The translations under genes and the position numbers were made by a program. This document shows, in pieces, positions 40,411 through 63,762 of a stretch of 64,000 nucleotides of DNA. The stretch is taken from IMG/VR virus record IMGVR_UViG_3300034061_004620; one strand, 5' to 3'. The stretch comes from a virus. Taxonomy: Duplodnaviria; Caudoviricetes. Each line of letters starts with the position of its first letter. The stretch's first letter is position 1. The notes beneath the pieces were generated by a model. The model was not told the DNA's origin, searched no databases, and was given only the letters and a program-made list of their open reading frames with translations.

Positions 40411-40434
40411 TTTTTAGGAATTATACAAACTAAA

Positions 40435-40983
40435 ATGAAAATAGCAATAACTGGTTATAGTGCAGGCATTGGGCAAGCATTAGCAAAAATTTACCAACAG
40501 CAAGGACACGAAATCATTGGCCTTAGTAGACGTAATGGATATAATATCAGAAGCATCAATAAAATTGTTGCTATGGTTGAACACTGCGATATTTTTATTA
40601 ATAACGCCCAAGTAGGCTTCGCGCAGACAGAGTTGTTGTTTGCTATCTATAAGTTGTGGCATAACCAAAAAGATAAATCAATTATTAATATTAGCTCGAT
40701 GCTTACATCTTTTCCTGTATGCACACTGCCAGGAATCGAAATGACGGAATATTTTGTGCAGAAGAAATCTCTTGAAGAAGCTATTTCACAACTAAGAAAT
40801 TATCAAGCCTGGCCAAAACTTTATTTAATTAAGCCTGGTGCAGTAGCAACACAACCAGGACAGACTGATTGCACATCATATGCCAATGTAGATGAATGGG
40901 CTATTCAATTGATAAAAATTTTAGATGCTGGTCCTACCTTAGATGTTTGTGAAATAGCATTGGGTGTAAATTATGGACAGTAA
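40435..40983 (+). CDS. Short-chain dehydrogenase/reductase (compact)
   Basis: ITGYSAGIG, FINNA, IINISS, YFVQK (YxxxK). Confidence 0.85.
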   Translation: MKIAITGYSAGIGQALAKIYQQQGHEIIGLSRRNGYNIRSINKIVAMVEHCDIFINNAQVGFAQTELLFAIYKLWHNQKDKSIINISSMLTSFPVCTLPGIEMTEYFVQKKSLEEAISQLRNYQAWPKLYLIKPGAVATQPGQTDCTSYANVDEWAIQLIKILDAGPTLDVCEIALGVNYGQ

Positions 40984-42121
40984 AGAATATTTAACTAATC
41001 GTAACTTTTGCCCAATGCCGTGGACTGGATTAATGTATAATTTTGACGGTACAGTTAAAAATTGTATAAGAAGCTCAGCACCAATTGGTAATATACAAGA
41101 AAAGTCAATTGAACAAATTATTAATAATAATACAAATATCCACACTCGATCAGAAATGATTGCAAATAGGCCTGGCCCAAATTGTAATCCTTGTTATGAA
41201 TTAGAGAAAACAAAGAATAAATTTGATATAATAAGTGATAGAGTTTTTTATTTAAAAGAATTAAAACAAGTGCCAATGAGCACATATGAGCAGACACAAA
41301 ATTTTGACTTACATACAATTGACGTTAGATGGACAAATTTATGTAATTTTGCATGTGTTTATTGCGGCCCAGAATTTAGCAGTAAATGGGCCAGTGAATT
41401 GAATGAGCAGTTACAAGTGCCAACAGATCAAGCCAAAGAAAATTTTAAAAGTTTTGTCTTATCTCGCACAAAAAATTTAAAACATGTATATCTCGCCGGC
41501 GGCGAACCATTACTCATGAAAGAAAACTTGGAGCTATTGGAAAAATTATACATAGAAAATCCTGAAGTAAACCTAAGAATTAATACAAATTTAAGTAAAG
41601 TAGATACCAGTGTATTTGATCAAGTGTGCAAATTCAAAAATGTGCATTGGACTATTAGTGTTGAAACAATAGATAAAGAATACGAATATATTAGGTACGG
41701 TGGTAGTTGGACCGACTTTGTTGATAATTTAGCTGTGGTCAAAAGTTTAAATCATAAAATAACGTTCAACATGTTATATTTTTTATTAAATTATAGTTCA
41801 ATATTTGATTGTATAGAATATCTTCAGCAAATGGGATTTCATAATAACAGTTTTGTTATAGGAGCTTTAATTGGACCTGCTTTTTTTGACGTACGGCATT
41901 TACCAGGCAGCGTTTTAAACGACGTTGCTAAAGAGCTTGAAATTCGAATTTCACAATCACCAAAATTTTTACTTGAAAATAGTTACCAAAACTTATTACA
42001 ATACATAAAAAAACCAATGAACAAAGATTTAAAAAATTCCTTTACAATGATAAAAAATATTGATAAACGACGAAATCTAAACAGCAAAGACATTTTTCCA
42101 AAATTGTATGCTTATGAATGA
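40973..42121 (+). CDS. Radical SAM protein with N-terminal twitch domain
   Basis: FCPMPW..DGTVKNC..CNPC; CNFACVYC; AGGEP; NTN. Confidence 0.9.
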   Translation: MDSKEYLTNRNFCPMPWTGLMYNFDGTVKNCIRSSAPIGNIQEKSIEQIINNNTNIHTRSEMIANRPGPNCNPCYELEKTKNKFDIISDRVFYLKELKQVPMSTYEQTQNFDLHTIDVRWTNLCNFACVYCGPEFSSKWASELNEQLQVPTDQAKENFKSFVLSRTKNLKHVYLAGGEPLLMKENLELLEKLYIENPEVNLRINTNLSKVDTSVFDQVCKFKNVHWTISVETIDKEYEYIRYGGSWTDFVDNLAVVKSLNHKITFNMLYFLLNYSSIFDCIEYLQQMGFHNNSFVIGALIGPAFFDVRHLPGSVLNDVAKELEIRISQSPKFLLENSYQNLLQYIKKPMNKDLKNSFTMIKNIDKRRNLNSKDIFPKLYAYE

Positions 42122-43286
42122 TATAAAATCAATTGGGTTTGCATTAGATCCCAATAATATACCTGCATTTCTATTAGATTGGGAGCTTACAAAACTTTGC
42201 AATTTAGATTGTAGTTATTGTGGAGTTGGCATAGAATGGGGAGGTCATGACAATAACACAAAGCATCCGGCAAAAAAAGAATGTTTTGACACTATAGATT
42301 TTATGTATGCCTATGTTGATTTATATATGAAAAATAAGAAACCAAGTCAACGCAAAGTTATTCTTAATGTTTACGGCGGGGAAAGTTTATTTCATCCAGA
42401 TATTGTAGAAATTTTGCATGAATGCAGAAATAGATATCAAATATATAAAAATAATTGGCATCTTACAATTACTTGTACAACTAATGGGGTGGTAGGATTC
42501 AATAATTGGAGACGAATTGTTCCCTTAATTGATGAATTTACTGTGAGTTATCACTCAGAGAATTTACCTAAGCAAAAACAACAATATAAAGATAATATTT
42601 TGTTTCTTAAGAAACAAAATAAAAGGTTTAAATGTGTAATTATGATGCATAACAATAAGGAATTATTTGAAGATTCTGAATCTATAGCTCAGTTTTGCAA
42701 CACACACGGTATTCGCTACGTGCTAAAGCCTTTGGATAATACCGGAGACGAATGGAAATATTCTATAGATCAATTTGAAAAAATGAAAACTTTTTGGATT
42801 AATACTGTGCCTGAATCCAAAAAAGATAATAACCGTAAAATTTTTCAAATTTTAAATGAAGGTACAAAGGTATCAAGTATACACGAAGGACGGGCTTGCT
42901 GCGGTGGAAGAAAATTAAGTATTAACAGCGATCTTAAATCAAATGTAACATATGTACCAAAACAAGGATTTCGAGATTGGTACTGTAGTGTAAATTGGTT
43001 TTTTCTATTTGTACAACAATTAACCGGTAACATTTATACAAATAAAGATTGCCGTACAAGTACAACTGGTCGGGTAGAACCATTGGGAAATTTAAGGTCA
43101 ACTAAAGAATTATTGGATAATGTAAAAACACAACTTGACAATCACTCTATGCCTGTTATAAAATGTGTAAAAGATATTTGCCAGTGTGGCTTCTGTGCTC
43201 CAAAAGCAGATAACATGAAAGATTATAAAGAATTATTTGATAGACAATTAGACAAGGAAAAATATCATGGCAACCAAACCCTTTGA
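42108..43286 (+). CDS. Radical SAM protein with C-terminal SPASM-like domain
   Basis: CNLDCSYC, YGGES, TTNG, SYH; C-terminal CCGG..CSVNW..DC..C..ICQCGFC. Confidence 0.9.
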   Translation: MLMNDIKSIGFALDPNNIPAFLLDWELTKLCNLDCSYCGVGIEWGGHDNNTKHPAKKECFDTIDFMYAYVDLYMKNKKPSQRKVILNVYGGESLFHPDIVEILHECRNRYQIYKNNWHLTITCTTNGVVGFNNWRRIVPLIDEFTVSYHSENLPKQKQQYKDNILFLKKQNKRFKCVIMMHNNKELFEDSESIAQFCNTHGIRYVLKPLDNTGDEWKYSIDQFEKMKTFWINTVPESKKDNNRKIFQILNEGTKVSSIHEGRACCGGRKLSINSDLKSNVTYVPKQGFRDWYCSVNWFFLFVQQLTGNIYTNKDCRTSTTGRVEPLGNLRSTKELLDNVKTQLDNHSMPVIKCVKDICQCGFCAPKADNMKDYKELFDRQLDKEKYHGNQTL

Positions 43287-44337
43287 TGTATCAAAATTTC
43301 GCAAAAGTATTACAAAAAGTATTGACGGTATCTCAGTTGGATTCAACGACCCAACAGATTGGATCAGCACAAACAACTACGCTCTTAACTATCTTATATC
43401 TGGAGACTTTAACAAGGGTATTCCAATGGGAAAGGTCACTGTATTTGCTGGCGAATCTGGTGCGGGCAAATCCTTTATCTGCTCAGGAAATCTTGTCAAG
43501 AACGCTCAAGAACAAGGTATCTATGTTATACTCATTGACACCGAAAACGCTCTTGATGAGGCTTGGTTACACGCACTCGGAGTGGATACTGCTGAGGACA
43601 AACTACTTAAACTTAATATGGCAATGATTGACGATGTGGCCAAAATGATTACTGAGTTTGTAAAAGAATACAAAACACTACCGGAAGACCAACGTCCCAA
43701 GGTGTTAATCGTGTTAGACAGTTTGGGCATGTTGCTCACCCCAACTGACGTAAATCAGTTCGAAGCAGGTGACTTGAAAGGTGACATGGGCCGTAAGCCC
43801 AAAGCACTGACTGCCTTGGTTCGTAACTGCGTTAACATGTTTGGCAGTTTAAATATTGGTCTGGTAGCAACCAACCATACCTATGCCAGTCAGGACATGT
43901 TTGATCCTGATGACAAGATCTCAGGTGGTCAAGGTTTTATCTATGCAAGTTCTATTGTAGTCGCTATGCGTAAGTTAAAGTTAAAAGAAGACGAAGATGG
44001 TAATAAAATTAGCGAAGTAAAAGGTATTCGTGCAGCATGCAAGATCATGAAAACACGTTATGCTAAACCGTTCGAATCAGTACAGGTCAAGATCCCTTAC
44101 GAACAGGGAATGAATCCATACTCTGGATTAGTTGACATGTTTGAAGGAAAAGGATTATTACAGAAAGAAGGTAATAGTCTTAAATACACCTTAGCAGATG
44201 GCACTGTAATTAAGCAGTTTCGTAAGGCCTGGGAGCGTAACGAAGGTGGCAGTCTTGATAGTGTAATGACTGACTATACTGCCAATCCACATCAACATCT
44301 TGCCGCAGAACACCAAAATACAGTAGATGATGAATGA
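43267..44337 (+). CDS. uvsX: RecA-like recombinase UvsX
   Basis: FAGESGAGKS (Walker A), IDTENA, LDSLG, NHTY, SGG.GF.YASS. Confidence 0.95.
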   Translation: MATKPFDVSKFRKSITKSIDGISVGFNDPTDWISTNNYALNYLISGDFNKGIPMGKVTVFAGESGAGKSFICSGNLVKNAQEQGIYVILIDTENALDEAWLHALGVDTAEDKLLKLNMAMIDDVAKMITEFVKEYKTLPEDQRPKVLIVLDSLGMLLTPTDVNQFEAGDLKGDMGRKPKALTALVRNCVNMFGSLNIGLVATNHTYASQDMFDPDDKISGGQGFIYASSIVVAMRKLKLKEDEDGNKISEVKGIRAACKIMKTRYAKPFESVQVKIPYEQGMNPYSGLVDMFEGKGLLQKEGNSLKYTLADGTVIKQFRKAWERNEGGSLDSVMTDYTANPHQHLAAEHQNTVDDE

Positions 44338-45022
44338 GCTTAATTTGGTCAGCTCGGCAACTGTAACTAAACATAATCCTATAGTCAAAGTTAGGCCTTA
44401 TGTGCCATGTTTACAAATTGAGTGGATGATAAGTAAACGTTGCAATTTTGATTGTAGTTATTGTCCTCCAATTTGGCACGATAAAACTTCTAAGGACTTA
44501 ACATTAGATGAATTAAAAAATGCCTGGCTAAAAATTATAAAAGTATCAGAACACAAAACAGAACAAAAAATTCATTTAACAATTTTAGGTGGCGAGCCAA
44601 GTTTAAATAAAAATTTATTACCTTTTTTGCAATGGGCAAGAAATAATTTTTCAGATAGAATAGGTCAAATTGGCACTATTACTAACGGAAGTGCTAATTC
44701 AAATTTTTACACAGAATTAGTTAGTTATTGCGATTGGGTGACATTTTCTACTCACAGTGAGTTCATGAATGAGAGAAAATTTTTTAGAAACGTAATCAAA
44801 GCACACCGAGCAAGTAAAAAAAAGAATGCAATGGTAATGGTCAATTTGATGCAAGAATCATGGTTCAATGAAAGAATACATTTGTATCAAAAATTTTTAA
44901 ACAAATTTAATATTGCTAATTATATGCATCAAATTGAATATAACGAAGGATTCAACGAATTTAACGGAAAACGTGCAGATGTAAAACCGGTGAAATTAAT
45001 AAAAAAAATGAAATTTATATGA
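44327..45022 (+). CDS. Radical SAM core protein (no auxiliary domain)
   Basis: IEWMISKRCNFDCSYC, LGGEP, ITNGS, FSTHSE. Confidence 0.85.
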   Translation: MMNELNLVSSATVTKHNPIVKVRPYVPCLQIEWMISKRCNFDCSYCPPIWHDKTSKDLTLDELKNAWLKIIKVSEHKTEQKIHLTILGGEPSLNKNLLPFLQWARNNFSDRIGQIGTITNGSANSNFYTELVSYCDWVTFSTHSEFMNERKFFRNVIKAHRASKKKNAMVMVNLMQESWFNERIHLYQKFLNKFNIANYMHQIEYNEGFNEFNGKRADVKPVKLIKKMKFI

Positions 45023-46269: not shown

Positions 46270-47017
46270 AAATGCATTCGAAAGTCATCAACATAGTTTA
46301 CAAACATTGGATCTACTTTATGGATACGATAGCTTTTTAGATAGTTTGGAATTTGTGGCTGACTTTGGTTGTGGCGCTGGATTAGACACAAAGTGGTGGG
46401 CTACATTAGAAACCAGAGATGATCCCCCAGAATCAAGAAATTATAAGACCTATGCAGTTGATATCAATAAAAACATTATTGATCCCGGGTTATCTCAATT
46501 AGAAAATGTATACGTTGTTAATGAAGATTTTGATACAGCTGATTGTCCAATTTCAAGAAGTGTTGATCTCATTTGGTGCCATAATGCTTTTCAGTATGTT
46601 ACCAATCCTCTATCGACCCTTCGTACTTGGAATTCTCAATTGGTGCCCGACGGGATGCTAATTCTAATTTTTCCGCAGAACAGTCACTACTCCTATAATA
46701 GATTAAACAATCATAGCTATAATGGTTGTTACTACAATCATAATCTTGTAAATTTAATATACATGTTGGCAGTCAACGGATTTGATTGTAGAGATGCGTA
46801 TTTTCTTAAAGAGGAAAACAATCCATGGCTACACGCTGCTGTATACAAATCAAATATTGCACCAATGGACCCAAAGAAAACAACCTGGTTTGATTTAGCA
46901 GATCTTAACTTGATTAATGACAGCGTGATTGATAGTCTTAATAAATTCAGCTATGTTAAACAAGAAGAAATTATTACAACTTGGCTTGATAAAAATTTCC
47001 ACTTTCCAAAAGAATGA
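46256..47017 (+). CDS. Class I SAM-dependent methyltransferase
   Basis: VADFGCGAG, AVDIN, DLIWCHNAFQY, L.PDGMLIL. Confidence 0.8.
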   Translation: MVQFKNAFESHQHSLQTLDLLYGYDSFLDSLEFVADFGCGAGLDTKWWATLETRDDPPESRNYKTYAVDINKNIIDPGLSQLENVYVVNEDFDTADCPISRSVDLIWCHNAFQYVTNPLSTLRTWNSQLVPDGMLILIFPQNSHYSYNRLNNHSYNGCYYNHNLVNLIYMLAVNGFDCRDAYFLKEENNPWLHAAVYKSNIAPMDPKKTTWFDLADLNLINDSVIDSLNKFSYVKQEEIITTWLDKNFHFPKE

Positions 47018-47793
47018 AAATAGTATTGGTTACTGGTGGATTTGATCCAGTACACTCTGGACACATATCTTATCTCAATCATGCTGATCACTTAGGCGAT
47101 TGGCTAATTGTTGGTTTAAATTCAGACGCCTGGCTTGCACATAAAAAAGGTAAACCATTTATGTCATGGCATGAGCGCATGACAATTCTTGACAATCTAC
47201 ACATGGTAGATCGTGTAATTGAGTTTGATGACCGTGACGGCACTGCATGTGATGCTATACGCAAGGCAAAAGAAATGTTCCCCAACGATACTATTATTTT
47301 TGCCAATGGTGGTGACAGAAATCAAGACAATATTCCTGAAATGATTTTTGATGATGTAGAATTTGTTTTTGGAGTAGGTGGAGAGGACAAAAAGAACAGT
47401 AGTAGTGATATTCTCAAGCGATGGACTTCTACGGAAGTACAGAGAAAATGGGGATCGTACACAGTATTAAACGAAATACCAGGCGCAAAAGTTAAAACTT
47501 TAAGAGTTGATCCAGGTCAAACTCTCAGTATGCAAAGACATCAGTATAGAAGTGAATACTGGATGGTTACAGAGGGCACTTGCATGATCAATATGGCCAT
47601 GCCCGGCGATTTAGATAACCCACCTAAGATCTTGGGAAAATATGACGAATGGCGTGTACCACGCAATGCCTGGCATCAACTTACTAATCCGTTTACAAAA
47701 CCTTGTACCATTGTAGAAATTCAGTATGGAGACCGGTGCGAAGAAGAAGATATCGAACGATTAGATGACGCCGGTCAAACAACGCAAATATAA
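47014..47793 (+). CDS. Cytidylyl/adenylyltransferase (HxGH) fused to a PMI type II-like cupin
   Basis: TGGFDPVHSGH..GLNSD..FANGGDR..K.NSSS; then RKWGSY..KVKTL.V.PGQTLSMQRHQYRSEYW..IVEIQYG..EEDIERL. Confidence 0.85.
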   Translation: MKIVLVTGGFDPVHSGHISYLNHADHLGDWLIVGLNSDAWLAHKKGKPFMSWHERMTILDNLHMVDRVIEFDDRDGTACDAIRKAKEMFPNDTIIFANGGDRNQDNIPEMIFDDVEFVFGVGGEDKKNSSSDILKRWTSTEVQRKWGSYTVLNEIPGAKVKTLRVDPGQTLSMQRHQYRSEYWMVTEGTCMINMAMPGDLDNPPKILGKYDEWRVPRNAWHQLTNPFTKPCTIVEIQYGDRCEEEDIERLDDAGQTTQI

Positions 47794-49550: not shown

Positions 49551-50399
49551 ATGCAAAGACCTACTATGGAAATAACAACCATGATTGGTTGTTCCTTGAT
49601 GTGCAATTTTTGCCCTCAAGACAATTTACGAGACATGTATGGTAACGATGTCAAATACATGACTTTGGATACATTTAAAACAGCATTATCAAAAGTACCA
49701 AAAAATACCAGAATTGATTTTAGTGGCATGGCCGAAGCCTGGATCAATCCTGCGGCCACTGACATGTTAGAACATACTTTGGTATCAGGACACAATGTAG
49801 CTATCTATACAACTTTTTACAATTGGGATATTGGGACTGCTGAACGTGTTGTGCAGTTACTTTATCGTTATCGAGCACAGATCGAAGTACTTAGTGTGCA
49901 TTTTCCTGATGAATACGGTAATATGAAGGGATGGAAATATAGCACTGAATGGGAAGCTGTATTTCACATGGTAACCTCTGCGGTACAAGATGCTAATATT
50001 AAATTAGAAGCTATGACCATGAGCGATCATGGTAAGATACATAAGGATTTGCAGCATCTTGGGATCCAATTGTACAATTGGTTTGGGCACGACCGTGCTG
50101 GAAGTTTGAATAAAGAACAAGTTAAAGAACAACCAGTTCATTTTGTTACTAAACACGAACGCCCGGTGAGTTGTAGTAAGACTGTGAATTATGATCAACA
50201 CGTACTGCTACCCAATGGTGATGTAGTATTATGCTGCATGGATTATGATCTAAAACACGTGATTGGTAATTTGGTTAACGATTCCTATTTGGATTTGTTC
50301 ACCGGTGAACCCATGATAAATCTAATACGAGAAAATCAAAAAAATTGCTACAGTGCGGCAAGTTTATGTAAAAGTTGCACTGATGCTAAAATACATTGA
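49551..50399 (+). CDS. Radical SAM protein with C-terminal SPASM domain
   Basis: CSLMCNFC, FSGMAE; CSKT..LPNGDVVLCCMDY..IGNL..CKSC. Confidence 0.9.
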   Translation: MQRPTMEITTMIGCSLMCNFCPQDNLRDMYGNDVKYMTLDTFKTALSKVPKNTRIDFSGMAEAWINPAATDMLEHTLVSGHNVAIYTTFYNWDIGTAERVVQLLYRYRAQIEVLSVHFPDEYGNMKGWKYSTEWEAVFHMVTSAVQDANIKLEAMTMSDHGKIHKDLQHLGIQLYNWFGHDRAGSLNKEQVKEQPVHFVTKHERPVSCSKTVNYDQHVLLPNGDVVLCCMDYDLKHVIGNLVNDSYLDLFTGEPMINLIRENQKNCYSAASLCKSCTDAKIH

Positions 50400-51683: not shown

Positions 51684-52023
51684 AGGATTATTGTTTGTAC
51701 TCACAACTAACTTTAACAGTTTGATAGAAACTATTAGAAATCATGTGAGATCATTCAATCAAAATACTACAGACGAAGGTAATTTTTTAGATGTTGGTGT
51801 ACTTGGTTTTTGGAATTTAATGTTAGAGGTAGTTTTTACTTTGTTTGTTTTACTTAGTTTAACAACAGGAATTTTGTTAACAGCCGGGTTGGCAGTAAGT
51901 GCATATCCTTTTGTGGCATTTTTGACATATTCAAGAAACTTGCTTGTAGGTACAAGGGGAAAACAAGACAAAGATATTCAAATAATAAAGTTACCTAATG
52001 ACTCGAGTCAAGAAAAAGTCTAA
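51664..52023 (+). CDS. Hypothetical membrane protein
   Basis: Long hydrophobic stretch (LMLEVVFTLFVLLSLTTGILLTAGLAVSAYPFVAFL). Confidence 0.55.
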   Translation: MMTELYRGLLFVLTTNFNSLIETIRNHVRSFNQNTTDEGNFLDVGVLGFWNLMLEVVFTLFVLLSLTTGILLTAGLAVSAYPFVAFLTYSRNLLVGTRGKQDKDIQIIKLPNDSSQEKV

Positions 52024-52507
52024 CCTTGCCAAAGGCAAAGATAGTTACGATGCAGAAATAGGCGGCGAATTAGTCGCCTTTTTCAATAAAAATATTACTC
52101 CTTATGCAACAGAAGTAGGCGGGCCTGCCTTTGATTTAATTCCTATACAAAAACAAAAAGATATAATGGTCAATGTTGCTCGTATGCATGCCGAGCAAGA
52201 ATATAACCGTATAATGGATTTAGTTAAAGTATTACAGAAACAAGCAGATGAAATTAAAAGAAGATTATATATAACTGATGCCGTACATGCCGCAGAATAT
52301 CAATTTCAAATCTATCATGGTCAAACATATTGGCTATGCTTTGATAGCAAAATAAATCGTACAAGATTATGTCACCAAGGACCTAAAGATTGGACTACCG
52401 GTGCACCCGAACATTATAACTATATTGCACAGGTCAAATGGTTAGGTGACTACACGTGGCAAGAAGTTACCACACAAACGTTTGGGAATAGTACTGAACA
52501 ATCTTAG
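51998..52507 (+). CDS. DUF2452-like conserved protein
   Basis: EQEYNRI..LQKQA..HAAEYQFQIYHGQTYWL..GP.DW..L.D.TW. Confidence 0.55.
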   Translation: MTRVKKKSNLAKGKDSYDAEIGGELVAFFNKNITPYATEVGGPAFDLIPIQKQKDIMVNVARMHAEQEYNRIMDLVKVLQKQADEIKRRLYITDAVHAAEYQFQIYHGQTYWLCFDSKINRTRLCHQGPKDWTTGAPEHYNYIAQVKWLGDYTWQEVTTQTFGNSTEQS

Positions 52508-53420
52508 CAAGTTCTACTTCAAATACAGCTCTTGGTTGCCACCCAAGAGTCTTTAGTTTTTCATCATTGATACTATACCTTACATCTTGACCAGGTCTGG
52601 TTATATCTAAATTTAAATATTTTCCGTGATCTGTAATTTGTTCAGGGCAGAACATGTCAATAATCTGCATTGCAATAACTATATTTTGCTCTTCGTGATT
52701 GCCACTTATATTGTAAATTTCGTTCTGCACTCCGGATTCAATTATAGTGAGCACAGCACTTGCTGTGTCGCTTACGTGTAACCATGTGCGACGGGGTAGT
52801 CCGGCATCGTGCAGTGCGATTGGCCTACCTAATTGTAAATGTTTAATACTTTTTGGTATAAACTTTTCTGTATATTGACCTATTCCGTAATTGTTAGTTG
52901 GTCTAACAATTACGTAAGGAACCTTGAATGTACGTGCCCACGCTAATATTAATTGGTCTGCTGCGGCTTTGGTTGCTGAATACGGATTACTTGGCTTTAG
53001 TAAATCTGTTTCAATATGACTACCAGATTCAATATCACCATACACTTCGTCTGTACTAAAATGCAACAAGGTTGGCATCTTGAAACGATGGCGTTCTTTT
53101 ATCAAGTTTAGCAAATGATGAACACCATTTACATTACTGCGTAAAAACACATCTGAACTAACAATACTGTTATCTACATGTGTTTCTGCTGCGGTATTAA
53201 TTATATAATCGCAGTCGTATAGCATATCTAAATCATTGATATCGGATTCAATGAATTTAAAACGCGAATGTTTGATTAGGTCTGGTAAGAATTGAACGTT
53301 AGCAGCATAGGTTTTTTTATCTACACCAATTACATAGTAACCCTTATCTAAACAGGCCTGGGTAACATGATAGCCGATGAATCCAAGACAGCCGGTAACG
53401 TATACAACTTTTGTCGTCAT
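52467..53420 (-). CDS. rfbB: dTDP-glucose 4,6-dehydratase (RmlB/RfbB-like)
   Basis: VTGCLGFIG, DKKTYA, AAETHVDNSI, STDEVYG, YSATK, RPTNNYG, RPGQD.RY; start at MTTKVV. Confidence 0.9.
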   Translation of the reverse strand: MTTKVVYVTGCLGFIGYHVTQACLDKGYYVIGVDKKTYAANVQFLPDLIKHSRFKFIESDINDLDMLYDCDYIINTAAETHVDNSIVSSDVFLRSNVNGVHHLLNLIKERHRFKMPTLLHFSTDEVYGDIESGSHIETDLLKPSNPYSATKAAADQLILAWARTFKVPYVIVRPTNNYGIGQYTEKFIPKSIKHLQLGRPIALHDAGLPRRTWLHVSDTASAVLTIIESGVQNEIYNISGNHEEQNIVIAMQIIDMFCPEQITDHGKYLNLDITRPGQDVRYSINDEKLKTLGWQPRAVFEVELAKIVQYYSQTFVW

Positions 53421-53899
53421 AATTTTCTTGTTAAATTTAAATATGCTGGTTCTGGTGAACCAATAAACACAGGCCAAATGTCTTCTAATTCAGCAATACT
53501 CTGTGGTTTATATAATTGAATGTTTGGCAAAGCAGCCAACACTTGTTCGTCATCATGAGCCCAATGGCTAACACCATCGTGACTATAGTCTTTGTCTCTG
53601 CCGCTGCCAATTAGTTTTACAGGAATGTTTTCGTAACTTACATAATTACGCAGAAACTCAAAAGGACGATACAATAAAAAGCTACTCATACTGTAACATA
53701 CCGGAATCAACCCTTCATTGGCCATACCAATGGCAGCACCTATCATTAGTTGTTCAGCCGCGCCCACGTTATAAAAACGTTCCGGAAAAGCATTACGTAT
53801 TTGATCCAAGATACCAAAACCTAAGTCTGCTGTGACAACTCTTATGTCATCGGTGCTGACCATGCTTTCTAATAGAAGACCGGCACATTCTTTTCTCAT
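53417..53899 (-). CDS. Transketolase-like subunit, pyrimidine-binding domain only
   Basis: TADLGFG..RFYNVGAAEQLMIG.A.G.A..G..P..Y..SFL..R..E..R..HW. Confidence 0.85.
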   Translation of the reverse strand: MRKECAGLLLESMVSTDDIRVVTADLGFGILDQIRNAFPERFYNVGAAEQLMIGAAIGMANEGLIPVCYSMSSFLLYRPFEFLRNYVSYENIPVKLIGSGRDKDYSHDGVSHWAHDDEQVLAALPNIQLYKPQSIAELEDIWPVFIGSPEPAYLNLTRKL

Positions 53900-54510
53900 T
53901 GTGTTAACGCCTCATAATCTGATTGTTTAAGTACATAATAATGTGTGAGTAATTCTTTAGCAAAAGGCCAATTTGGCGGATTACTAAATCTCACATTGAT
54001 TCGAGGCAGAAATGCCACTAAACGATGACTCAATGTTATGGTGTCAATCATGTCGTATGCACCCATTCCGTTTAAATTGGCATAAACGTGCAAGTTATCA
54101 ATTTTGTTATCATTGATAAAGCGAAGCGCCTCCCATATTGATCCTTCGGCACATTCGCCATCGCTGATCATGCAGTAAACATTTTTATCAGGAGTAGCCA
54201 GTGCGTGTCCTACTGCAATAGGTAATCCTGACCCCAGACTACCAGTTGAGCAGTAAAGATGATTTGGTAAATCTCTACCAGGATGGATTCCATGTTTGTG
54301 CAACATTGCAACAGGATCTACTCCGTGGTATTTTTCTAAAACTACGTATAGCGCCAATCCTGCATGACCATTACTGAGAATAAAAACTTCATCATCTTTA
54401 CGTTTTGCGTAAATTTCTTCAATGATAGGCAATGCGCTCAGTGTTGAACTGAGGTGGCTGAGTTTTTCCTGATAAGTTATATCAATTATTCTACGTGTTA
54501 GTGCGTTCAT
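53896..54510 (-). CDS. Transketolase-like subunit, N-terminal ThDP-binding domain
   Basis: SHLSSTLS, FILSNGHA, STGSLGSGL..AVG.A, ISDGECAEGSIWEA..N. Confidence 0.88.
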   Translation of the reverse strand: MNALTRRIIDITYQEKLSHLSSTLSALPIIEEIYAKRKDDEVFILSNGHAGLALYVVLEKYHGVDPVAMLHKHGIHPGRDLPNHLYCSTGSLGSGLPIAVGHALATPDKNVYCMISDGECAEGSIWEALRFINDNKIDNLHVYANLNGMGAYDMIDTITLSHRLVAFLPRINVRFSNPPNWPFAKELLTHYYVLKQSDYEALTQ

Positions 54511-55214
54511 TTCCATGCCAATAGTTGATCGTGAATGACCATTTCAGTTTGATAACCGTGCCGTTGAAACAACTCTGCCAGCTGTTGTCTATTATCGCCC
54601 AAGTTACCCGGCCATGACTGTTGTTTAACATCAGTTTGATGAACTTCAACAAACCAAAATTTAACTTTGTTTGCAACAGGACCTAAAGTTGCATCTGTTA
54701 ATGCTTCCATTTCTGAACCTTCGATGTCACATTTGATAAAATCCACATGATCTAATCCTTGCATGTGTAATAGTGTTTCCAAGGTCATACATTGAACTTT
54801 GGTTTCTTTTCCGTTGCGATTAAGCATACTATTTGTAGTGCTGTTTTCGTTGATATAAAAAGAAATCATTTCATTATGCGGACCAACAGCCAATTGTAAA
54901 GGAGTAATATTGCCATGGTCCTTAACAATTTCTTGAAGTACATTAAATGTGTTTGGTGTTGGTTCAACAGCAATTACTTTGCTACAACTGTCTGCTGCAT
55001 ACAGACTAAACAATCCACAGTTTGCACCAAGGTCAAGTATAACCATGTCGCCACGACCAGCAAAAATAGGATCATACATACGATCTTCGTTGATTTGCTT
55101 TAAGATAACATCTGTATAATTTTCTGGATCGTTAAACCAGGCTTGCACATCTGCATGTTCGCTCTGATATGTATAATCTTGTTGCTGACTTGTTTTAATG
55201 GTTCGTTCTATCAT
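54507..55214 (-). CDS. FkbM-family methyltransferase
   Basis: ILDLGAN.G.FS, AVEP, IKCDIEGSE, VEVH. Confidence 0.9.
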   Translation of the reverse strand: MIERTIKTSQQQDYTYQSEHADVQAWFNDPENYTDVILKQINEDRMYDPIFAGRGDMVILDLGANCGLFSLYAADSCSKVIAVEPTPNTFNVLQEIVKDHGNITPLQLAVGPHNEMISFYINENSTTNSMLNRNGKETKVQCMTLETLLHMQGLDHVDFIKCDIEGSEMEALTDATLGPVANKVKFWFVEVHQTDVKQQSWPGNLGDNRQQLAELFQRHGYQTEMVIHDQLLAWK

Positions 55215-56037
55215 ATTTTGCCTTTAATAAAAAATCTCTAATACCTGTTTCTAAATTGTATTCGCAGCTGAAACCTAATTGTGAAGATTTGTTTATATCA
55301 CAGACCCACACTGTGTTTTCAAATGCCTTACGCATCTCTGCTACTCGTGCAACCGGTGCTCCTGCGTTTTCTGTTATTTGTACCCAAAGGTCATACAAAT
55401 CAAAATTACTAATTTGATATCCGCTACCAAAATTTACAATTTCGCCTGGTGCCAAATCCCACTCTTGTAGAACTAAATCAATTCCTCTAACAAAATCGTT
55501 TATATAGATAAAATCATGATGCCCTTGATATAATGTCATTGGTTCGTCGTAATTGAATGCTCGATATAAACGGGGAAACAACCTATGTGGCCTCTCACCG
55601 GGACCGTATACACTGTAAGGTCTCACAATCCATATGGGTAAATTTAAGTGTCGTGCCCATCCTTGACAAAGTAATGTTGCAGCACCTTTTGTGGCCTGAT
55701 AAAAATCAACAGGTTTCAGTAACGTATCTTCGGCAGTGGCATGATTGGTAGGGCCGTATTCACTGCTGCTTCCTATCTGTACCACACGACATTTTTGATC
55801 ACAATCTCGTACATATTCTAAAATAGTTTGAACCATCAATATGTTGGGTTCAAACATTTGCTCATGATCATAAATTTCTGCTGCCGAGTTTATAATAGCA
55901 TCTGGTTTGAAATTTTCTAAACACTCGCGTAAAGATTCGTGGCGTCGAAAGGCATAAACTTCATGTCCCCTTGTGGTGTAATATTGTACCAGATTTTGTC
56001 CAACAAAACCAGTGGCACCTGTTATGAAAAATTTCAT
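55195..56037 (-). CDS. NAD-dependent epimerase/reductase (extended SDR)
   Basis: ITGATGFVG, GSSSEYG, YQATK, RPYSVYGP, HDFIYIND. Confidence 0.9.
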   Translation of the reverse strand: MKFFITGATGFVGQNLVQYYTTRGHEVYAFRRHESLRECLENFKPDAIINSAAEIYDHEQMFEPNILMVQTILEYVRDCDQKCRVVQIGSSSEYGPTNHATAEDTLLKPVDFYQATKGAATLLCQGWARHLNLPIWIVRPYSVYGPGERPHRLFPRLYRAFNYDEPMTLYQGHHDFIYINDFVRGIDLVLQEWDLAPGEIVNFGSGYQISNFDLYDLWVQITENAGAPVARVAEMRKAFENTVWVCDINKSSQLGFSCEYNLETGIRDFLLKAKYDRTNH

Positions 56038-56675
56038 CTGATCAATTGTGATAAGTGATGATTGGCTCGGCTGATACGAGTTGGCTTATAGGTTCCGGGC
56101 CAATGCACTATCCAGTCGCCCGGCTCCCATGCACCACTATTACCAAGAATGTCAAATCTGGCATCGCAATAGTCATAAATTTCTGGTTCATAACTGTTCA
56201 TATATTTTTGCGGAACAATTTTTACAATGTCTTGATATTGATCGATAGTATCGATAATAACCTGTTGTTCTGCCCATTCTATATTTTTATATGATTCTTC
56301 TTTGTCTATAATCATTTGTAGATAAGCACGACCTTGTTCACTATTACGTACTAAAAAGTTACCAGAATTGAGATTGAGACGATCAACAGGTACAATGAAG
56401 TGATAGTTGTCATCAATTCGATCCTCAATTTGAATGGTTTGATTGGTAATCATAGCATCGCATTCACTGAACAACAACCATTCTATTTCTGGATGTTGGG
56501 TGAATAAATCTAATGCGTAATGAATTTTGTTAAAACCAGTAATTGTGCTATACTTCATTTCAGTTAGCACATGAAATTGGTATCCGTATCTTGCACAATA
56601 TTCTTGTTTTGATTGATCGGTTAGTGCTGCCAAATCTGAGTAATTGGCATCATGTAAGCTTGCAACAGCATGCAT
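56034..56675 (-). CDS. GT34 (GMA12/MNN10-like) glycosyltransferase
   Basis: YC.RYGY, WLLFSECDA, LNSGNFLVRN, AEQ, W.PGDWIVHWPG. Confidence 0.8.
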   Translation of the reverse strand: MHAVASLHDANYSDLAALTDQSKQEYCARYGYQFHVLTEMKYSTITGFNKIHYALDLFTQHPEIEWLLFSECDAMITNQTIQIEDRIDDNYHFIVPVDRLNLNSGNFLVRNSEQGRAYLQMIIDKEESYKNIEWAEQQVIIDTIDQYQDIVKIVPQKYMNSYEPEIYDYCDARFDILGNSGAWEPGDWIVHWPGTYKPTRISRANHHLSQLIR

Positions 56676-56703
56676 AGGTGTCCTTGAAAATCATTGAGTA
56701 AGG

Positions 56704-56721
56704 TATTTATTATACTAAGTA
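56704..56721. promoter_or_regulatory. Back-to-back late promoters for the two sugar transcription units
   Basis: Minus strand TAAATA 56709-56704; plus strand TAAGTA 56716-56721, 5 nt before ATG 56727. Confidence 0.65.
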
Positions 56722-56726: not shown

Positions 56727-57560
56727 ATGAAAATCTATGACTGTTTTACATTTTTTAACGAATTTGAGCTATTAGAACTCAGATTACGTGAGCTTTACGA
56801 TCATGTGGATCATTTTGTTTTGGTTGAAGCCAATAGAACTTTCCAAAATAAAGAGAAATCACTTTACTATAAAGAAAATGCTGCCCGCTTTGCTCAGTGG
56901 GCAGATAAAATAATTCATTGGGTCGTTGAAGATATGCCAACAGACACGGACACATGGGGCAGAGAACGTCATCAACGAGATGCCATAGTGCAAGCGGTTG
57001 CTGATGCGGAATCAGATGATATCATACTCATTGGTGATGCAGATGAAATACCCAGACCGGAAACTATTGAATATCTAAAGAAAAGTGATCAGGGTATCTG
57101 GGGCTTTAGAATGCCATTGTTCAATTTTAAATACAACTACATGTTAACAAATCAAGATTGCTATTCTGTGTGGAGCGGTGCTGTAAGAAAAAAGCTATTG
57201 GTCAGCGCAGAAGATTTTAGACGTATGCGACATGTACTTGGTGGATTAGAATACGGTTATAAAGACAACGTGGTTGAAATAGTAGAACATGCAGGATGGC
57301 ATTTTACATATCTTGGCAACGAAGAGTTTGCAAAGACCAAAATACAAAGTTTTGCACACGCAGAAACTAATACGCCAGACATAGTAGATCAGCTGGACAT
57401 AGAGGCCAGTATAGTTCGCGGCGCTGGCATTATTCAAACAGATGTTAATTATAGATTTTCTCCTGTGGCTGTTGACAATTATTTGCCGTTATCGGTACAG
57501 AAAAGTACACATATAATTCAAGGAAACTTTCCTTCTGCGAAAGAATTTTTGCCAAAGTAG
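56727..57560 (+). CDS. GT17 (beta-1,4-N-acetylglucosaminyltransferase-like) glycosyltransferase
   Basis: MKIYDCFTFFNE..LRL.EL..VD.FV.VE..TF, RE..QR, GDADEIP, GWHFTY..KIQSFAH. Confidence 0.88.
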   Translation: MKIYDCFTFFNEFELLELRLRELYDHVDHFVLVEANRTFQNKEKSLYYKENAARFAQWADKIIHWVVEDMPTDTDTWGRERHQRDAIVQAVADAESDDIILIGDADEIPRPETIEYLKKSDQGIWGFRMPLFNFKYNYMLTNQDCYSVWSGAVRKKLLVSAEDFRRMRHVLGGLEYGYKDNVVEIVEHAGWHFTYLGNEEFAKTKIQSFAHAETNTPDIVDQLDIEASIVRGAGIIQTDVNYRFSPVAVDNYLPLSVQKSTHIIQGNFPSAKEFLPK

Positions 57561-57582: not shown

Positions 57583-57634
57583 CTTACGATGTTTAAATAT
57601 TTGTGTGCAATGCACATTAAATGGAGATTACAAC

Positions 57635-58660
57635 GTGAAAAAATTATTAGCAGTTGTGTTTGCTACACTGACCGGGTATGCCGGAGCAGCAGAACTAACA
57701 GGAGCAGGAGCAACATTTCCTTTTCCTATCTATGCCAAATGGGCCGAAGCCTATAAAGCTGCCACTGGTATTGGACTTAACTATCAATCAATTGGTAGCG
57801 GTGGTGGTATCAAACAAATCAAAGCCAAGACGGTGGACTTTGGTGCCAGCGACATGCCATTGAAGCCAGAAGAGCTTGAAAAAGAAGGCTTGATGCAGTT
57901 TCCGGCTGTTATTGGAGGAGTAGTACCAGTATACAACTTAGATGGTGTTGCACCGGGTCAATTGAAGTTGACACCAGAAATTATTGCAAACATTCATCTT
58001 GGTAAAATTACAAAGTGGAACGATAGATCAATTGTAGAATTAAATGCTGGTGTTAATTTACCAGCACTCAATATTACAGTTGTACATCGTGCAGATGGCT
58101 CAGGTACTACATTTATTTGGACAAACTTCTTAGGCAAAGCAAATACAGAATTTGCTAAAACTGTTGGCGAAGGCACAGCAGTCAAGTGGCCAACGGGTGT
58201 AGGTGGCAAAGGTAATGAAGGTGTTGCTGTTCAAGTACAAAGAATCAAAGGTGCATTTGGCTATGTAGAATATGCATATGCCAAAAGAAACAAAATTGCA
58301 CATGCTCAATTACGAAATCGTGATGGTGTTTTTGTACAACCAAGCGATGACACATTCAAGGCAGCAGCAGCTAATGCAGATTGGGCTAATGCACCAGGTA
58401 TGTATTTGTTACTAACTTGGCAGACAGGTAAGGATGCTTGGCCAGCCACAGGTGCAAGTTTTATTCTCATGCACAAGCAACAGGCAGACGCATTAACAGG
58501 TCGTGCAGTTCTCAAATTCTTTGATTGGAGTTGGAAGAATGGTGCCAAGATGAGTGAAGAGTTAGAATATGTTCACTTACCACAGGCAGTTATTAAATTA
58601 AATCAGGACAACTGGAAACGAGATCTAAAAGGTCCTGATAGCAACTCAATTTGGAAATAA
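57635..58660 (+). CDS. pstS: Phosphate ABC transporter substrate-binding protein
   Basis: GTG start after GGAG; signal peptide; TGAGATFP.P.Y.KW, NYQSIGSGGG, DFGASD, HRADGSGTT, GYVEYAYA. Confidence 0.97.
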   Translation: MKKLLAVVFATLTGYAGAAELTGAGATFPFPIYAKWAEAYKAATGIGLNYQSIGSGGGIKQIKAKTVDFGASDMPLKPEELEKEGLMQFPAVIGGVVPVYNLDGVAPGQLKLTPEIIANIHLGKITKWNDRSIVELNAGVNLPALNITVVHRADGSGTTFIWTNFLGKANTEFAKTVGEGTAVKWPTGVGGKGNEGVAVQVQRIKGAFGYVEYAYAKRNKIAHAQLRNRDGVFVQPSDDTFKAAAANADWANAPGMYLLLTWQTGKDAWPATGASFILMHKQQADALTGRAVLKFFDWSWKNGAKMSEELEYVHLPQAVIKLNQDNWKRDLKGPDSNSIWK

Positions 58661-58669
58661 GGATCAATT

Positions 58670-60076
58670 ATGAAAACATTTACAAAAATTGCTCTTGCTA
58701 TCAGTTTAGCTTTTAGTGCACCAGCTTATGCCGACGATTATCTTGATACTTTGAAAATTTTAAAAGATAAAGGTATTTTAACACAAACTGAATATGACAC
58801 CAAAGTTCAAGCACATGAAGAAAAAGCAGAAAATAAAAAGTTTGCAGAACAGCGAATCGACAAAGATGTCAGCGACTCTGTCAAATACAGACAAGCCAGA
58901 GCTAATGACGGATCAGTTACAGAAAATGGAATTGGACTCAAAAGCAAAGATGGCAACAATACCATCCAACTTACAGGTCGATTACATATGGACTATCGTC
59001 AGTACTCCCCGGATTATGGTACAGGTCAAACCACGGATTCGTATCAGAACACCGCTGAAGCACGACGAGCCAGATTTGGAGTAAGAGGACAGTTTGCCAA
59101 AGACTTCAAATATCAATTGTTAGCAAACTTTGGTGCCAGTGACGGTTTTAGCTCAACATCAAGTACAGCAGACGAAATGTGGGTCAACTATGCTGCTAAT
59201 CCAGAAATGCAATTTCAGTTTGGATTGTTTAAAATGCCTTTCAGTTTAGAACAAATGACCAGTTCAAATAATCTGGATTTCATGGAGCGTAGTTTAATTG
59301 GCCAAAACGACAGTGAATTAATTCCTGCTAAAGAAACTGGATTCATGCTGCATGGTATTCCTAAGCCTGGGTTAACTTATGCTATTGCGGCCAGTCGCGG
59401 CAAAAGTAATAAGAGTGCCGAGTTCGATGGATTTGACTACATTGGTCGTGTAACTACAAACATTGCCGAACTGACCGGAAGCAAAGCATATACAGCACAC
59501 CTTGGTGCTGCTTATAGCACAGGTGAAATCAAGGGCGGTGTTATTCCAGTAAGCGGCAGAACAGAATCACGTATGCAGTCAGCATGGTTTACCGGATCTG
59601 CTCTCAGCGGTGCAACTACAAGAACACGCCAAGGACTTGAGGCCGCATTTGCTTATAATGCTTTCAAAGTACAAGGCGAGCAGTTTAATTTTAGATATGA
59701 TCCTGCCACTGGAGACAATCAAGAAATTCGTGGATATTATGCACAAGCTGTTTATAACCTAACTGGTGAATCTCACGCATATAAAGATGGAACATTTGGT
59801 TGGATTAAGCCAAACAACCCTGTTGACAAAGGCGGCAGCGGCGCTTGGCAAGTAGGTGTACGTATGAGTGAATTTGATGCCAGTGATATCACGGTAGCCA
59901 CAGGCAAATCAAATCGTGCTACTGCTATGACATATGGAATCACCTGGTTCTGCACAGACAACCTACGTTTTATGTTAAACTACGTGGATACAAAGTTTGA
60001 TGCATTAGTTGGCAGTTCGGGTAGTCGTGTAAATGGTGACAAAGCAGTAATGTTCAGAAGTCAGCTTAGTTTTTAA
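58670..60076 (+). CDS. oprP: OprO/OprP-family phosphate-selective porin
   Basis: Signal peptide, G.LHMDY, RRARFGV.G, G.FK.PFSLE..TSSN...FMERS, LRFMLNY, C-terminal QLSF. Confidence 0.88.
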   Translation: MKTFTKIALAISLAFSAPAYADDYLDTLKILKDKGILTQTEYDTKVQAHEEKAENKKFAEQRIDKDVSDSVKYRQARANDGSVTENGIGLKSKDGNNTIQLTGRLHMDYRQYSPDYGTGQTTDSYQNTAEARRARFGVRGQFAKDFKYQLLANFGASDGFSSTSSTADEMWVNYAANPEMQFQFGLFKMPFSLEQMTSSNNLDFMERSLIGQNDSELIPAKETGFMLHGIPKPGLTYAIAASRGKSNKSAEFDGFDYIGRVTTNIAELTGSKAYTAHLGAAYSTGEIKGGVIPVSGRTESRMQSAWFTGSALSGATTRTRQGLEAAFAYNAFKVQGEQFNFRYDPATGDNQEIRGYYAQAVYNLTGESHAYKDGTFGWIKPNNPVDKGGSGAWQVGVRMSEFDASDITVATGKSNRATAMTYGITWFCTDNLRFMLNYVDTKFDALVGSSGSRVNGDKAVMFRSQLSF

Positions 60077-62014: not shown

Positions 62015-63052
62015 ATGTCAAAAAAAACAGTATTAGTAACCGGCGGCGCCGGATTTATTGCACATCATGTTATTGATTTAATTTTACGTAGTACGGACTG
62101 GAACGTTGTCTGTTTAGATAGATTAGATATATCTGGAAACTTAAACAGACTGGCGGATATGTTGATGTATCATAATCCGGCAACTACCAGGAGTAGAATA
62201 CGTATTGTATTTCATGACCTAAAAGCCGAAATAAACAGTCAAATCACCCAAGACATTGGACCTGTAGATATCATTTTACATCTTGCTGCAGGCAGTCATG
62301 TGGATCGCAGTATTCAATATCCCATGGAGTTTGTACAGGACAACGTGGTAGGTACTGTTAACTTATTAGATTATGCCAGAAAGAATCTCCCTAATTTGGA
62401 GAAGTTTGTATACTTTTCCACCGACGAGATATATGGGATTGCACCACCTGGTGTGGCCTATAAGGAATATGATAGATATAACAGTACCAATCCTTACTCT
62501 GCGAGTAAGGCAGCGGCCGAAGAGTTTTGTGTGGCATATGAAAACACTTACAAGATGCCCATTGTAGTTACCCATACCATGAACGTGTTTGGTGAGCGAC
62601 AACATCCAGAAAAGTTTATTCCCAGCACAATTCAAAAGGTGAGAGATGGCGAAACAGTCATTATACATTCGGATCCCTCCAGGACCGTTGCAGGAAGTAG
62701 GATGTATATCCATGCTCGTGACGTCGCTTCGGGTCTTATGTTCATACTCGGTCTCGAGAACTATACTCATAGGGGTGACTATGGCCACGCCCACTGTCCA
62801 AAATTCAACTTGGTTGGTACTGAGGAGATTGATAATCTCACTCTTGCACAAATGATTGCCAGTGCTGTGGGCAAGGAACTAAAATACGAAATGACTGACT
62901 TTCATACCAGTCGCCCCGGCCACGACATGCGTTATGCATTAGATGGTTCGCTGTTACGAGAGCTTGGGTGGGAACCTGGTATCAAATTGAGTGATCGAAT
63001 TGAAGCTATGGTACAATGGACGCTTGCCAACGACAGATGGTTACGTAAATGA
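62015..63052 (+). CDS. rfbB: dTDP-glucose 4,6-dehydratase (second paralogue)
   Basis: VTGGAGFI, HLAAGSHVDRSI, STDEIYG, YSASK, NVFGERQHPEKFIP, RPGHDMRY. Confidence 0.9.
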   Translation: MSKKTVLVTGGAGFIAHHVIDLILRSTDWNVVCLDRLDISGNLNRLADMLMYHNPATTRSRIRIVFHDLKAEINSQITQDIGPVDIILHLAAGSHVDRSIQYPMEFVQDNVVGTVNLLDYARKNLPNLEKFVYFSTDEIYGIAPPGVAYKEYDRYNSTNPYSASKAAAEEFCVAYENTYKMPIVVTHTMNVFGERQHPEKFIPSTIQKVRDGETVIIHSDPSRTVAGSRMYIHARDVASGLMFILGLENYTHRGDYGHAHCPKFNLVGTEEIDNLTLAQMIASAVGKELKYEMTDFHTSRPGHDMRYALDGSLLRELGWEPGIKLSDRIEAMVQWTLANDRWLRK

Positions 63053-63762
63053 TAAAACATTGTTTTGTAGTAACCAGTGCTATAAATTCAAAGTTTGGTG
63101 TATATACTCCAGCAGCAAGATTACAGCAAACACTAATGACACTGGCCAGTGTTAGATCTCGTGCTCCGGGATCTAAGATAATCGTAATGGAGTGCACCGG
63201 AACACCACTAACAGACGCCCAAAGTCAACTGTTAGAAGAAAATTGTGATCTTTTGGTAGATTTCAGTCGGGACTCAGATGTTCGAGCTATCTACGACAGT
63301 ACTGATAATTGGGACATTGTAAAAAACAGTACTGAAATAATGTGTTTTGGTAAAACTTTGCGTATGTGTTTGGATGACGGTGATTTTGAAGGTGTTGACA
63401 GAATACACAAGATGTCGGGTCGTTATGTGTTAAACGACAATTTTGATTTATCAGTATATGAACAACATGCTGAAAGAATAATTATTGGACCAAAAAATCA
63501 AAGTCAATTTCCTTACGAGGTAACTGGCATTGAATTGCAATACATGGCCAGACTATGGTCATGGCCAGCCAATCAAACAGAACATGTGATTCAGACTTAC
63601 ACAGACAGTTTGAACTACATAGCTCAACGTGTGGCAGCAGGAGGGTATGCCGACATTGAACATGTGCTTTATAAATTCCTGCCACCAGATCTTGTGACAG
63701 AAATACCAGTGTTAGGTGTTGAAGGCAGCATTGCGCCCAATGGAGTAGCTATTAAAAACTAA
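63049..63762 (+). CDS. Hypothetical protein in the sugar operon
   Basis: FVVTSAI..RL.QT..TL.S.., KMSGRY.L, DIEH.LY; probably glycan-related, from context only. Confidence 0.5.
   Translation: MIKHCFVVTSAINSKFGVYTPAARLQQTLMTLASVRSRAPGSKIIVMECTGTPLTDAQSQLLEENCDLLVDFSRDSDVRAIYDSTDNWDIVKNSTEIMCFGKTLRMCLDDGDFEGVDRIHKMSGRYVLNDNFDLSVYEQHAERIIIGPKNQSQFPYEVTGIELQYMARLWSWPANQTEHVIQTYTDSLNYIAQRVAAGGYADIEHVLYKFLPPDLVTEIPVLGVEGSIAPNGVAIKN

Follow-up and report, generated by a model that had tools for sequence, protein, structure and literature searches.

A two-subunit transketolase-like enzyme in a putative sugar-tailoring operon of an uncultured freshwater phage

Within a 64,000-nucleotide stretch of viral DNA (IMG/VR record IMGVR_UViG_3300034061_004620; Duplodnaviria, Caudoviricetes), hereafter the window, we analysed a six-gene operon that encodes a thiamine diphosphate (ThDP) enzyme of transketolase type, split over two short genes that lie among genes for nucleotide-sugar enzymes. 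We conclude that this mini-transketolase pair takes part in nucleotide-sugar or glycan chemistry and exclude an auxiliary gene of the pentose-phosphate pathway as a likely reading, because the pair belongs to a distinct clade without the transketolase C-terminal domain and is linked to short-chain dehydrogenase/reductase (SDR), methyltransferase and glycosyltransferase genes in phages and bacteria. An earlier note on this DNA had also argued against a pentose-phosphate gene, and the distinct short clade (SH-aLRT 97) and the SDR, methyltransferase, dehydratase and glycosyltransferase neighbours bear this out. With the operon as a whole, a freshwater phage may tailor nucleotide sugars in the cytoplasm, probably late in infection, and so make a branched, methylated sugar; we give this account about an even chance of being right.

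The operon and its two-subunit ThDP enzyme

The operon (52467-56714) consists of six minus-strand open reading frames, whose list shows neighbours overlapping by 4, 20, 10, 4 and 4 nt. Domains were assigned by Pfam and NCBIfam profile searches, and all six of the coupled genes described in the earlier note were present with the domains given there. The promoter-like motif and the genes behind it, in order of transcription, are:

56704-56714, minus strand: promoter-like motif TATAATAAATA, core (A)ATAAATA, ending about 29 nt before the GT34 ATG
56034-56675, minus strand: GT34-family glycosyltransferase, 213 aa (PF05637, 8e-19, 68.8 bits against a cut-off of 23)
55195-56037, minus strand: short extended SDR, 280 aa (PF01370, 1.3e-36)
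54507-55214, minus strand: FkbM-family S-adenosylmethionine (SAM) methyltransferase, 235 aa (PF05050, 3e-18, 67 bits against a cut-off of 22.7; TIGR01444, 1.2e-25, 90.6 bits against 37.7)
53896-54516, minus strand: ThDP/diphosphate-binding (PP) subunit, 206 aa (PF00456/PF02775; NF004559, 5e-23)
53417-53899, minus strand: pyrimidine-binding (PYR) subunit, 160 aa (PF02779, 2e-19)
52467-53420, minus strand: RmlB-like nucleoside diphosphate (NDP)-hexose 4,6-dehydratase, 317 aa from ATG 53420 (TIGR01181, 5e-86)

A CAAGGA ribosome-binding site sits between the promoter-like motif and the GT34 ATG.

The two subunits of the ThDP enzyme total 366 residues. Aligned with E. coli TktA by hhalign (probability 99.1%), the PP subunit matches H21 to H26, H51 to H66, H78 to H100, D119 to D155, N149 to N185 and H192 to H261. 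These active-site residues are at least 97% conserved among 103 family members, and those of the SDG..N motif, which the earlier note had picked out (SDG at residues 118-120, N149), are 95-99% conserved. A profile alignment of the PYR subunit with TktA pairs E49 with E411, D108 with D469, H112 with H473 and R158 with R520. The description of this subunit as lacking the transketolase C-terminal domain was also accurate, as the protein ends after 160 aa and has no PF02780 match. Because the mapped catalytic residues are 87-100% conserved over the 103 PP and 149 PYR family members, the machinery typical of transketolase (TK) and DXS appears to be intact and under selection.

The PYR subunit aligns with DXS at a probability of 96.6%, against 40.6% for E. 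coli TK, with E49 matching E370, R78 R398, R101 R420, D108 D427, H112 H431 and R158 R478; DXS Y392 is not kept. Of the TK residues that bind phosphate (R358, S385, H461 and R520), H461 is replaced by G100, and the next residue, R101, is invariant and aligns with DXS R420 at the same spacing to the catalytic Asp. Residue R2 looks TK-like (DXS has Ser), a match to R358 that rests on the RK motif only and was aligned by no tool; global hhalign of the PYR N-terminus to TktA gave an unreliable probability of 7.6%. The enzyme thus looks like a hybrid, with a TK-like PP half and the acceptor-phosphate arginine of DXS in its PYR half. The conserved basic residues R2, R101 and R158 line the predicted acceptor site and suggest an acceptor that carries a phosphate or diphosphate. 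The sequence is compatible with either kind of donor, pyruvate (used by DXS and YerE) or a ketol (used by transketolase).

Family profiles placed the pair far from characterised enzymes of either kind. The best scores with NF004559 (transketolase) were 81 and 56 bits against a cut-off of 488, and those with TIGR00204 (dxs) were 19 and 40 bits against 466. TPP_enzyme_C gave a weak local match on the ThDP motif only, and the genes run PP then PYR rather than in the PYR-TH3-PP order of YerE-like sugar-branching lyases (decarboxylase family).

A model of the PP:PYR complex scored an ipSAE of 0.83 (best control 0.00), with at least 98% of contacts agreeing across runs and a partner pLDDT of 94, and the modelled interface is the PP:PYR face of TK-type enzymes. 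The mark used for complex models was reached by 58 of 80 solved complexes and by 2 of 110 mismatched pairs. The model supports assembly of the two subunits, with a pass that may only reflect likeness to a solved split TK (6yak/6yaj).

The SDR keeps its Ser-Tyr-Lys set (GSSSEYG, YxxTK) and is without the TDE signature of both RmlB-like proteins in the window. The solved structures closest to it are those of UDP-hexose 4-epimerases and dTDP-glucose dehydratases. Of 117 members of the SDR family, 108 end strand beta-2 with Arg or Lys, a position held by Asp in the two dehydratases. Under the accepted rule for coenzyme choice in SDRs, the protein is predicted to be an NADPH-dependent ketoreductase rather than an NAD+-retaining epimerase or dehydratase. 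The gene annotated in the earlier note as an epimerase/reductase is therefore present, and its NADPH-type signature favours the reductase side.

The operon dehydratase carries the motifs STDEVYG and YSATK (YxxxK) and an Asp after beta-2 (GVDKK). Its TIGR01181 score of 288.6 bits is below the equivalog cut-off of 365.1, so that no specificity for dTDP-glucose is implied. The identification as a 4,6-dehydratase made in the earlier note stood, with one change of coordinate. The start is most likely ATG 53420 (MTTKVVYVTG...), which overlaps the PYR stop codon as ATGA, and probably not TTG 53477, which opens the reading frame. The last 41 nt of the dehydratase gene also form the 3' end of the convergent DUF2452 gene (51998-52507), and a plus-strand terminator-like hairpin (52528-52550) falls within the dehydratase coding region.

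The module in viral and cellular genomes

Relatives of the PYR subunit are numerous. A metagenome protein collection clustered at 90% contained 2479, and the best 120 of these are almost all exactly 160 aa (one has 162 aa) and 74-88% identical. In IMG/VR, 442 contigs encode a PYR relative. In a tree of representatives, the PYR subunit of the window falls within a clade of 39 proteins, all of them short, with the SH-aLRT value given above.

Three further loci in the window carry genes that may bear on the same glycan:

56727-57560, plus strand (divergent): GT17-family glycosyltransferase, 277 aa from ATG 56727 (PF04724, 3.6e-32, 112.3 bits against a cut-off of 26)
62015-63762, plus strand: second RmlB-like dehydratase (345 aa; TIGR01181, 4.3e-71; STDEIYG), then a 237-aa protein with no family match
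47014-47793, plus strand: cytidylyl/adenylyl-transferase-like domain fused to a type II phosphomannose isomerase (PMI) cupin (PF01467, PF01050; rfaE domain II, 7e-22)

To count neighbours, 80 IMG/VR loci were grouped into 39 lineages, and a dehydratase was scored when it lay within 9 kb. The PP subunit lies near PYR in 38 of the 39 viral lineages and a linked SDR occurs in 36, followed by an RmlB-like dehydratase (33 lineages), GT34 (29) and FkbM (24). GT17 adjoins the module in 18 lineages and probably belongs to the same glycan system as the operon. The second dehydratase recurs in 16 lineages and the 237-aa protein after it in 12, and these two genes possibly form part of the same glycan island. 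Near the module in seven phage lineages and three marine contigs is the transferase/PMI-cupin fusion, a possible candidate for a sugar-1-phosphate activating or isomerising enzyme of the island.

The order SDR-methyltransferase-PP-PYR was present in 27 of the 27 loci first examined. Conservation in the operon is highest for PP and PYR (67-92% identity across loci), and the SDR, methyltransferase and glycosyltransferases fall to 35-50% identity in distant loci. In phages without FkbM, the slot between SDR and PP is usually taken by Methyltransf_24. At least two replacements of the methyltransferase by members of non-orthologous families argue that methylation belongs to the core of the pathway.

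Cellular genomes were scanned with a 7-sequence PYR alignment as query and one genome per prokaryotic species. We obtained 80 cellular loci, mostly from Patescibacteria, Omnitrophota and uncultured Gammaproteobacteria, some of them on contigs longer than 1 Mb. The conserved order in these is SDR (~316 aa), Methyltransf_23, PP, PYR and GT2, and 9 of the 80 loci continue with a GT-C transferase of PMT_2 type. This layout resembles that of the Arn pathway, where a modified sugar is loaded onto a lipid carrier before it reaches a surface acceptor. Glycan contexts also surround the nearest long-form relatives, those that keep the C-terminal domain. One long-form split transketolase (P0142 neighbourhood, GCA_041443065.1) precedes a 642-aa protein that joins an extended SDR to GT2, with a methyltransferase next, and another long-form relative adjoins a YerE-like enzyme and an arabinosyltransferase. 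The SDR::GT2 fusion may mean that the reductase works in concert with the lipid-carrier transferase.

The window encodes a tail sheath, tail tube, head-tail adaptor, large terminase, virion proteins and a UvsX recombinase, the last about 66% identical to UvsX of Rak2-like jumbo phages (Atu_ph07, CBB, GAP32). Metagenomes of lakes and other fresh waters, the work of well over a dozen studies, contain near-identical DNA, and IMG/VR contigs with the same locus reach 137 kb, those of relatives 357 kb. The source is an uncultured, common freshwater phage with T4-type core genes, and probably a jumbo phage. Among 50,697 deposited phage records, no match to the operon DNA was found, and no cultured phage had the SDR-methyltransferase-PP-PYR module or a close homologue of the ThDP subunits. 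Protein searches of the same records with PP and PYR returned only matches of at most 37% identity, most of them from records that resemble bacterial DNA or from unannotated gut contigs. PHROGs held no family for the PYR subunit, GT34 or GT17.

Several other features of the window were recorded. Around the uvsX gene (39463-45022) lie four radical-SAM proteins, two of the twitch/SPASM type and one a member of NF033640 (1.6e-78), together with a short SDR (40435-40983). A further SPASM protein is encoded at 49551-50399, and several radical-SAM proteins co-occur with the sugar module in related contigs. Directly downstream of GT17 (57605-60076) are genes for a PstS-like phosphate-binding protein and a phosphate-selective porin O/P, which suggests a Gram-negative host and phosphate-limited lakes. 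The tail region (13304-19071) encodes an unusually large tail sheath of 1108 aa, and a tail tube gene (207 aa) that is followed by one for a 554-aa protein with a tube-like N-terminal part. The motif ATAAATA precedes the tail sheath, tail tube and 554-aa protein genes alike.

Proposed pathway, timing and glycan target

In the pathway that we propose, the RmlB-like enzyme would convert an NDP-hexose to an NDP-4-keto-6-deoxyhexose, as its intact dehydratase motifs suggest. The 206-aa and 160-aa proteins, with an intact residue set and a modelled assembly, would form a two-domain ThDP carboligase of TK/DXS type. This carboligase would add a two-carbon unit, either acetyl from pyruvate or hydroxyacetyl from a ketol donor, to a sugar carbonyl, most simply the C4 keto group, and so yield an acyloin. 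Gene linkage and motifs suggest that the NADPH-type SDR may then reduce the new ketone and the methyltransferase methylate the product. In the least certain step, the soluble GT34 and GT17 would attach the sugar to an acceptor in the cytoplasm, for which a phage protein is the likeliest candidate.

Late genes of T4 are transcribed from promoters in which TATAAATA lies about 10 nt upstream of the transcript start. This consensus occurs once in the 64 kb, against 5.8 copies expected by chance, and is not found before the operon. ATAAATA, in turn, is enriched: the window has 12 copies, 7 of which begin 24-36 nt upstream of a same-strand gene start (binomial p ~1e-10). Genes behind this motif include the tail sheath, two tail-tube-like genes, the operon headed by GT34 and the second dehydratase (33 nt upstream). 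The ATAAATA core upstream of GT34 is kept in most relatives with the same gene order, although one (L026) has TAAATA only, and L011, L025 and L026 have lost the overlapping TATAAT. As the motif is common to the operon and the tail genes and kept in relatives, late-type expression of the operon is a reasonable inference. The late promoter claimed in the earlier note corresponds to an ATAAATA motif in common with tail genes, and not to the T4 consensus. An early sigma-70 promoter was set aside; a sigma-70 scan returned 23 sites, against 20.8 in shuffled sequence, and the TATAAT was not conserved. No metatranscriptome match spanned the whole operon. Metatranscriptome contigs of 217 nt at 53914-54130 (one run) and 155 nt at 52002-52147 (another) were not used as evidence because they could stem from DNA carry-over.

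Several observations weigh against the proposed pathway. The RmlB-like dehydratase is missing within 9 kb in 6 of the 39 phage lineages and in most cellular loci, and the operon has no nucleotidyltransferase. On a 32-kb contig of a P22-like podovirus (L030:6661-8983), SDR-PP-PYR occurs by itself, directly upstream of the small and large terminase genes, with no dehydratase, methyltransferase or glycosyltransferase nearby. A marine contig (L028:661-8030) has SDR-PP-PYR-FkbM and an RmlB-like gene together with a YerE-like three-domain ThDP enzyme and a ketopantoate-hydroxymethyltransferase-like gene; with two ThDP carboligases at this locus, the YerE-like enzyme could be the one responsible for branching there. 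The phosphate-binding residues that the PYR subunit retains would fit sugar phosphates as well as NDP-sugars, and the timing of the operon is read from the motif alone. For split-gene transketolases, a 2025 review reports the transfer of hydroxyacetyl to a keto sugar, on the way to miharamycin and amipurimycin, only as a proposal, and of the 13 further split-TK candidates, all from Streptomyces, none is characterised (PMC12247030).

The weakest part of the model is the acceptor. Hydrophobic segments are absent from all six operon proteins and GT17, and the operon contains no lipid-carrier, flippase or polymerase gene and no membrane-anchored component. These absences favour a cytoplasmic acceptor such as a phage structural protein. 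Alternatively, the chemistry may be as proposed and the glycan destined for a component of the host envelope, phage DNA or a small molecule instead of the virion. The bacterial relatives, which decorate the envelope through GT2 and GT-C enzymes, and an island that also holds radical-SAM and other tailoring enzymes lend some weight to such a target, which we regard as a serious possibility of less than even probability. Against it stand the missing membrane and lipid-carrier components, two soluble glycosyltransferases, a promoter-like motif that is the same as the one before tail genes, and the absence of any known DNA glycosyltransferase family.

Two other readings change the substrate of the ThDP enzyme, and we consider both improbable. 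In one, the DXS/TK-like pair acts on a free sugar phosphate to give a deoxy-ketose or higher ketose phosphate that is then reduced, methylated and later activated, for example by the fusion at 47014-47793. The closer alignment of PYR with DXS than with E. coli TK, the retention of R420 and R478, which bind glyceraldehyde-3-phosphate in DXS, and of R398, the lineages in which the dehydratase is dispensable and the recurrence of the transferase/cupin fusion near the module are all in keeping with it. However, the constant partner is an extended SDR of NDP-sugar type, the next gene in bacteria is GT2 (to which the SDR is once fused), and most lineages lack the transferase/cupin fusion. The other reading, in our view no more probable than the first, has the ThDP enzyme lengthen the sugar chain at an aldehyde to give a higher-carbon sugar with no tertiary C4 branch. 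Aldehydes are the natural acceptors of TK and DXS, all catalytic histidines are retained, and some lineages are without the 4,6-dehydratase; yet we recognised no enzyme in the operon that makes an aldehyde on a nucleotide sugar, and the ketone-making RmlB-like dehydratase accompanies the module in most phage lineages. Finally, truncated transketolases can be active, and R520 and the catalytic residues are conserved here. An ordinary, if minimal, transketolase of the pentose-phosphate pathway that redirects host carbon flux is nevertheless highly improbable, given a distinct clade that has lost H461 and the C-terminal domain, scores far under every transketolase equivalog cut-off, a position among SDR, methyltransferase and glycosyltransferase genes in phages and bacteria, and no other pentose-phosphate genes nearby.

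A broader form of the branched-sugar pathway would have a previously unrecognised clade of two-domain ThDP carboligases act on nucleotide-sugar acceptors, so that abundant freshwater jumbo phages, podoviruses and ultra-small bacteria, each with a dedicated NADPH reductase and a methyltransferase, make a branched, methylated sugar, which the phage places on its own virion in the cytoplasm late in infection. We put this forward only tentatively, as a proposal that is unlikely to hold in every part. If true, it would describe a new class of enzymes for tertiary-alcohol or chain-extended sugars and define a sugar that particles of freshwater phages and the surfaces of ultra-small bacteria may commonly carry. 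In that case, viral metagenome genes annotated as 'transketolase' should be left out of counts of pentose-phosphate auxiliary genes. The mini-transketolase family, with thousands of metagenome proteins in addition to the IMG/VR contigs and many members in Patescibacteria and Omnitrophota, offers a compact two-subunit test case.

Comparison with known systems

YerF is the nucleotide-sugar reductase that reduces the new ketone in the yersiniose A pathway. The YerE/YerF system of Yersinia pseudotuberculosis follows the same logic as the proposed phage pathway, in which a dehydratase makes an NDP-4-keto-deoxyhexose, a ThDP enzyme adds a two-carbon unit (PMC12247030) and the ketone is reduced. The earlier note had cited YerE as a precedent for sugar branching, and a ThDP enzyme linked to an NADPH-type SDR fits this carboligase-plus-reductase logic. 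YerE itself, however, is a single-chain enzyme of the decarboxylase family (TPP_enzyme_N/M/C), whereas the phage enzyme is a two-subunit TK/DXS-type enzyme with PP first, and the phage module differs further in that its methylation step appears obligatory.

The AviB1/AviB2-type E1 alpha/beta pairs are likewise two-subunit ThDP enzymes that add two-carbon branches to deoxy-keto sugars (PMC12247030). They belong to the alpha-keto acid dehydrogenase 2 (E1) family, unlike the TK/DXS-type phage pair, for which no E1 (pyruvate dehydrogenase) family was among the significant Pfam or PDB matches of PP and PYR; one weak NCBIfam match (3e-4) was obtained. The likeness to AviB1/B2 drawn in the earlier note thus extends to the addition of a two-carbon unit by two subunits and not to the ThDP family, and the comparison is a loose one. 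Among ThDP enzymes, only the YerE-like and E1-type ones have been shown to branch nucleotide sugars, and for transketolases this activity is a proposal. The split TKs of the Streptomyces miharamycin and amipurimycin pathways are of the TK family, encoded by two genes and have a proposed keto-sugar acceptor, as in the phage, a likeness by description only. They are known from Streptomyces secondary metabolism only.

The nearest solved structure is the split TK of Carboxydothermus hydrogenoformans (6yak/6yaj; PYR 1.8e-19, PP 1.4e-10), also encoded by two genes and a heterotetramer; human transketolase and DXS are the other nearest ones. The C. hydrogenoformans subunits, of 309 and 341 aa, have the C-terminal domain and a His at the H461 position, in contrast to the phage subunits of 206 and 160 aa, with Gly-Arg there. 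DXS shares six PYR-domain residues (E370, R398, R420, D427, H431 and R478) with the phage PYR subunit, but is a single chain of three domains, where the phage enzyme has two genes and no third domain. Studies of classical split transketolases deal with enzymes that retain the C-terminal domain (PMC13663882), and we found no paper that describes the short phage/Patescibacteria clade. This clade is smaller in form than the classical split transketolases and distinct from them, and the ThDP-dependent sugar tailoring proposed for it is of a kind already known.

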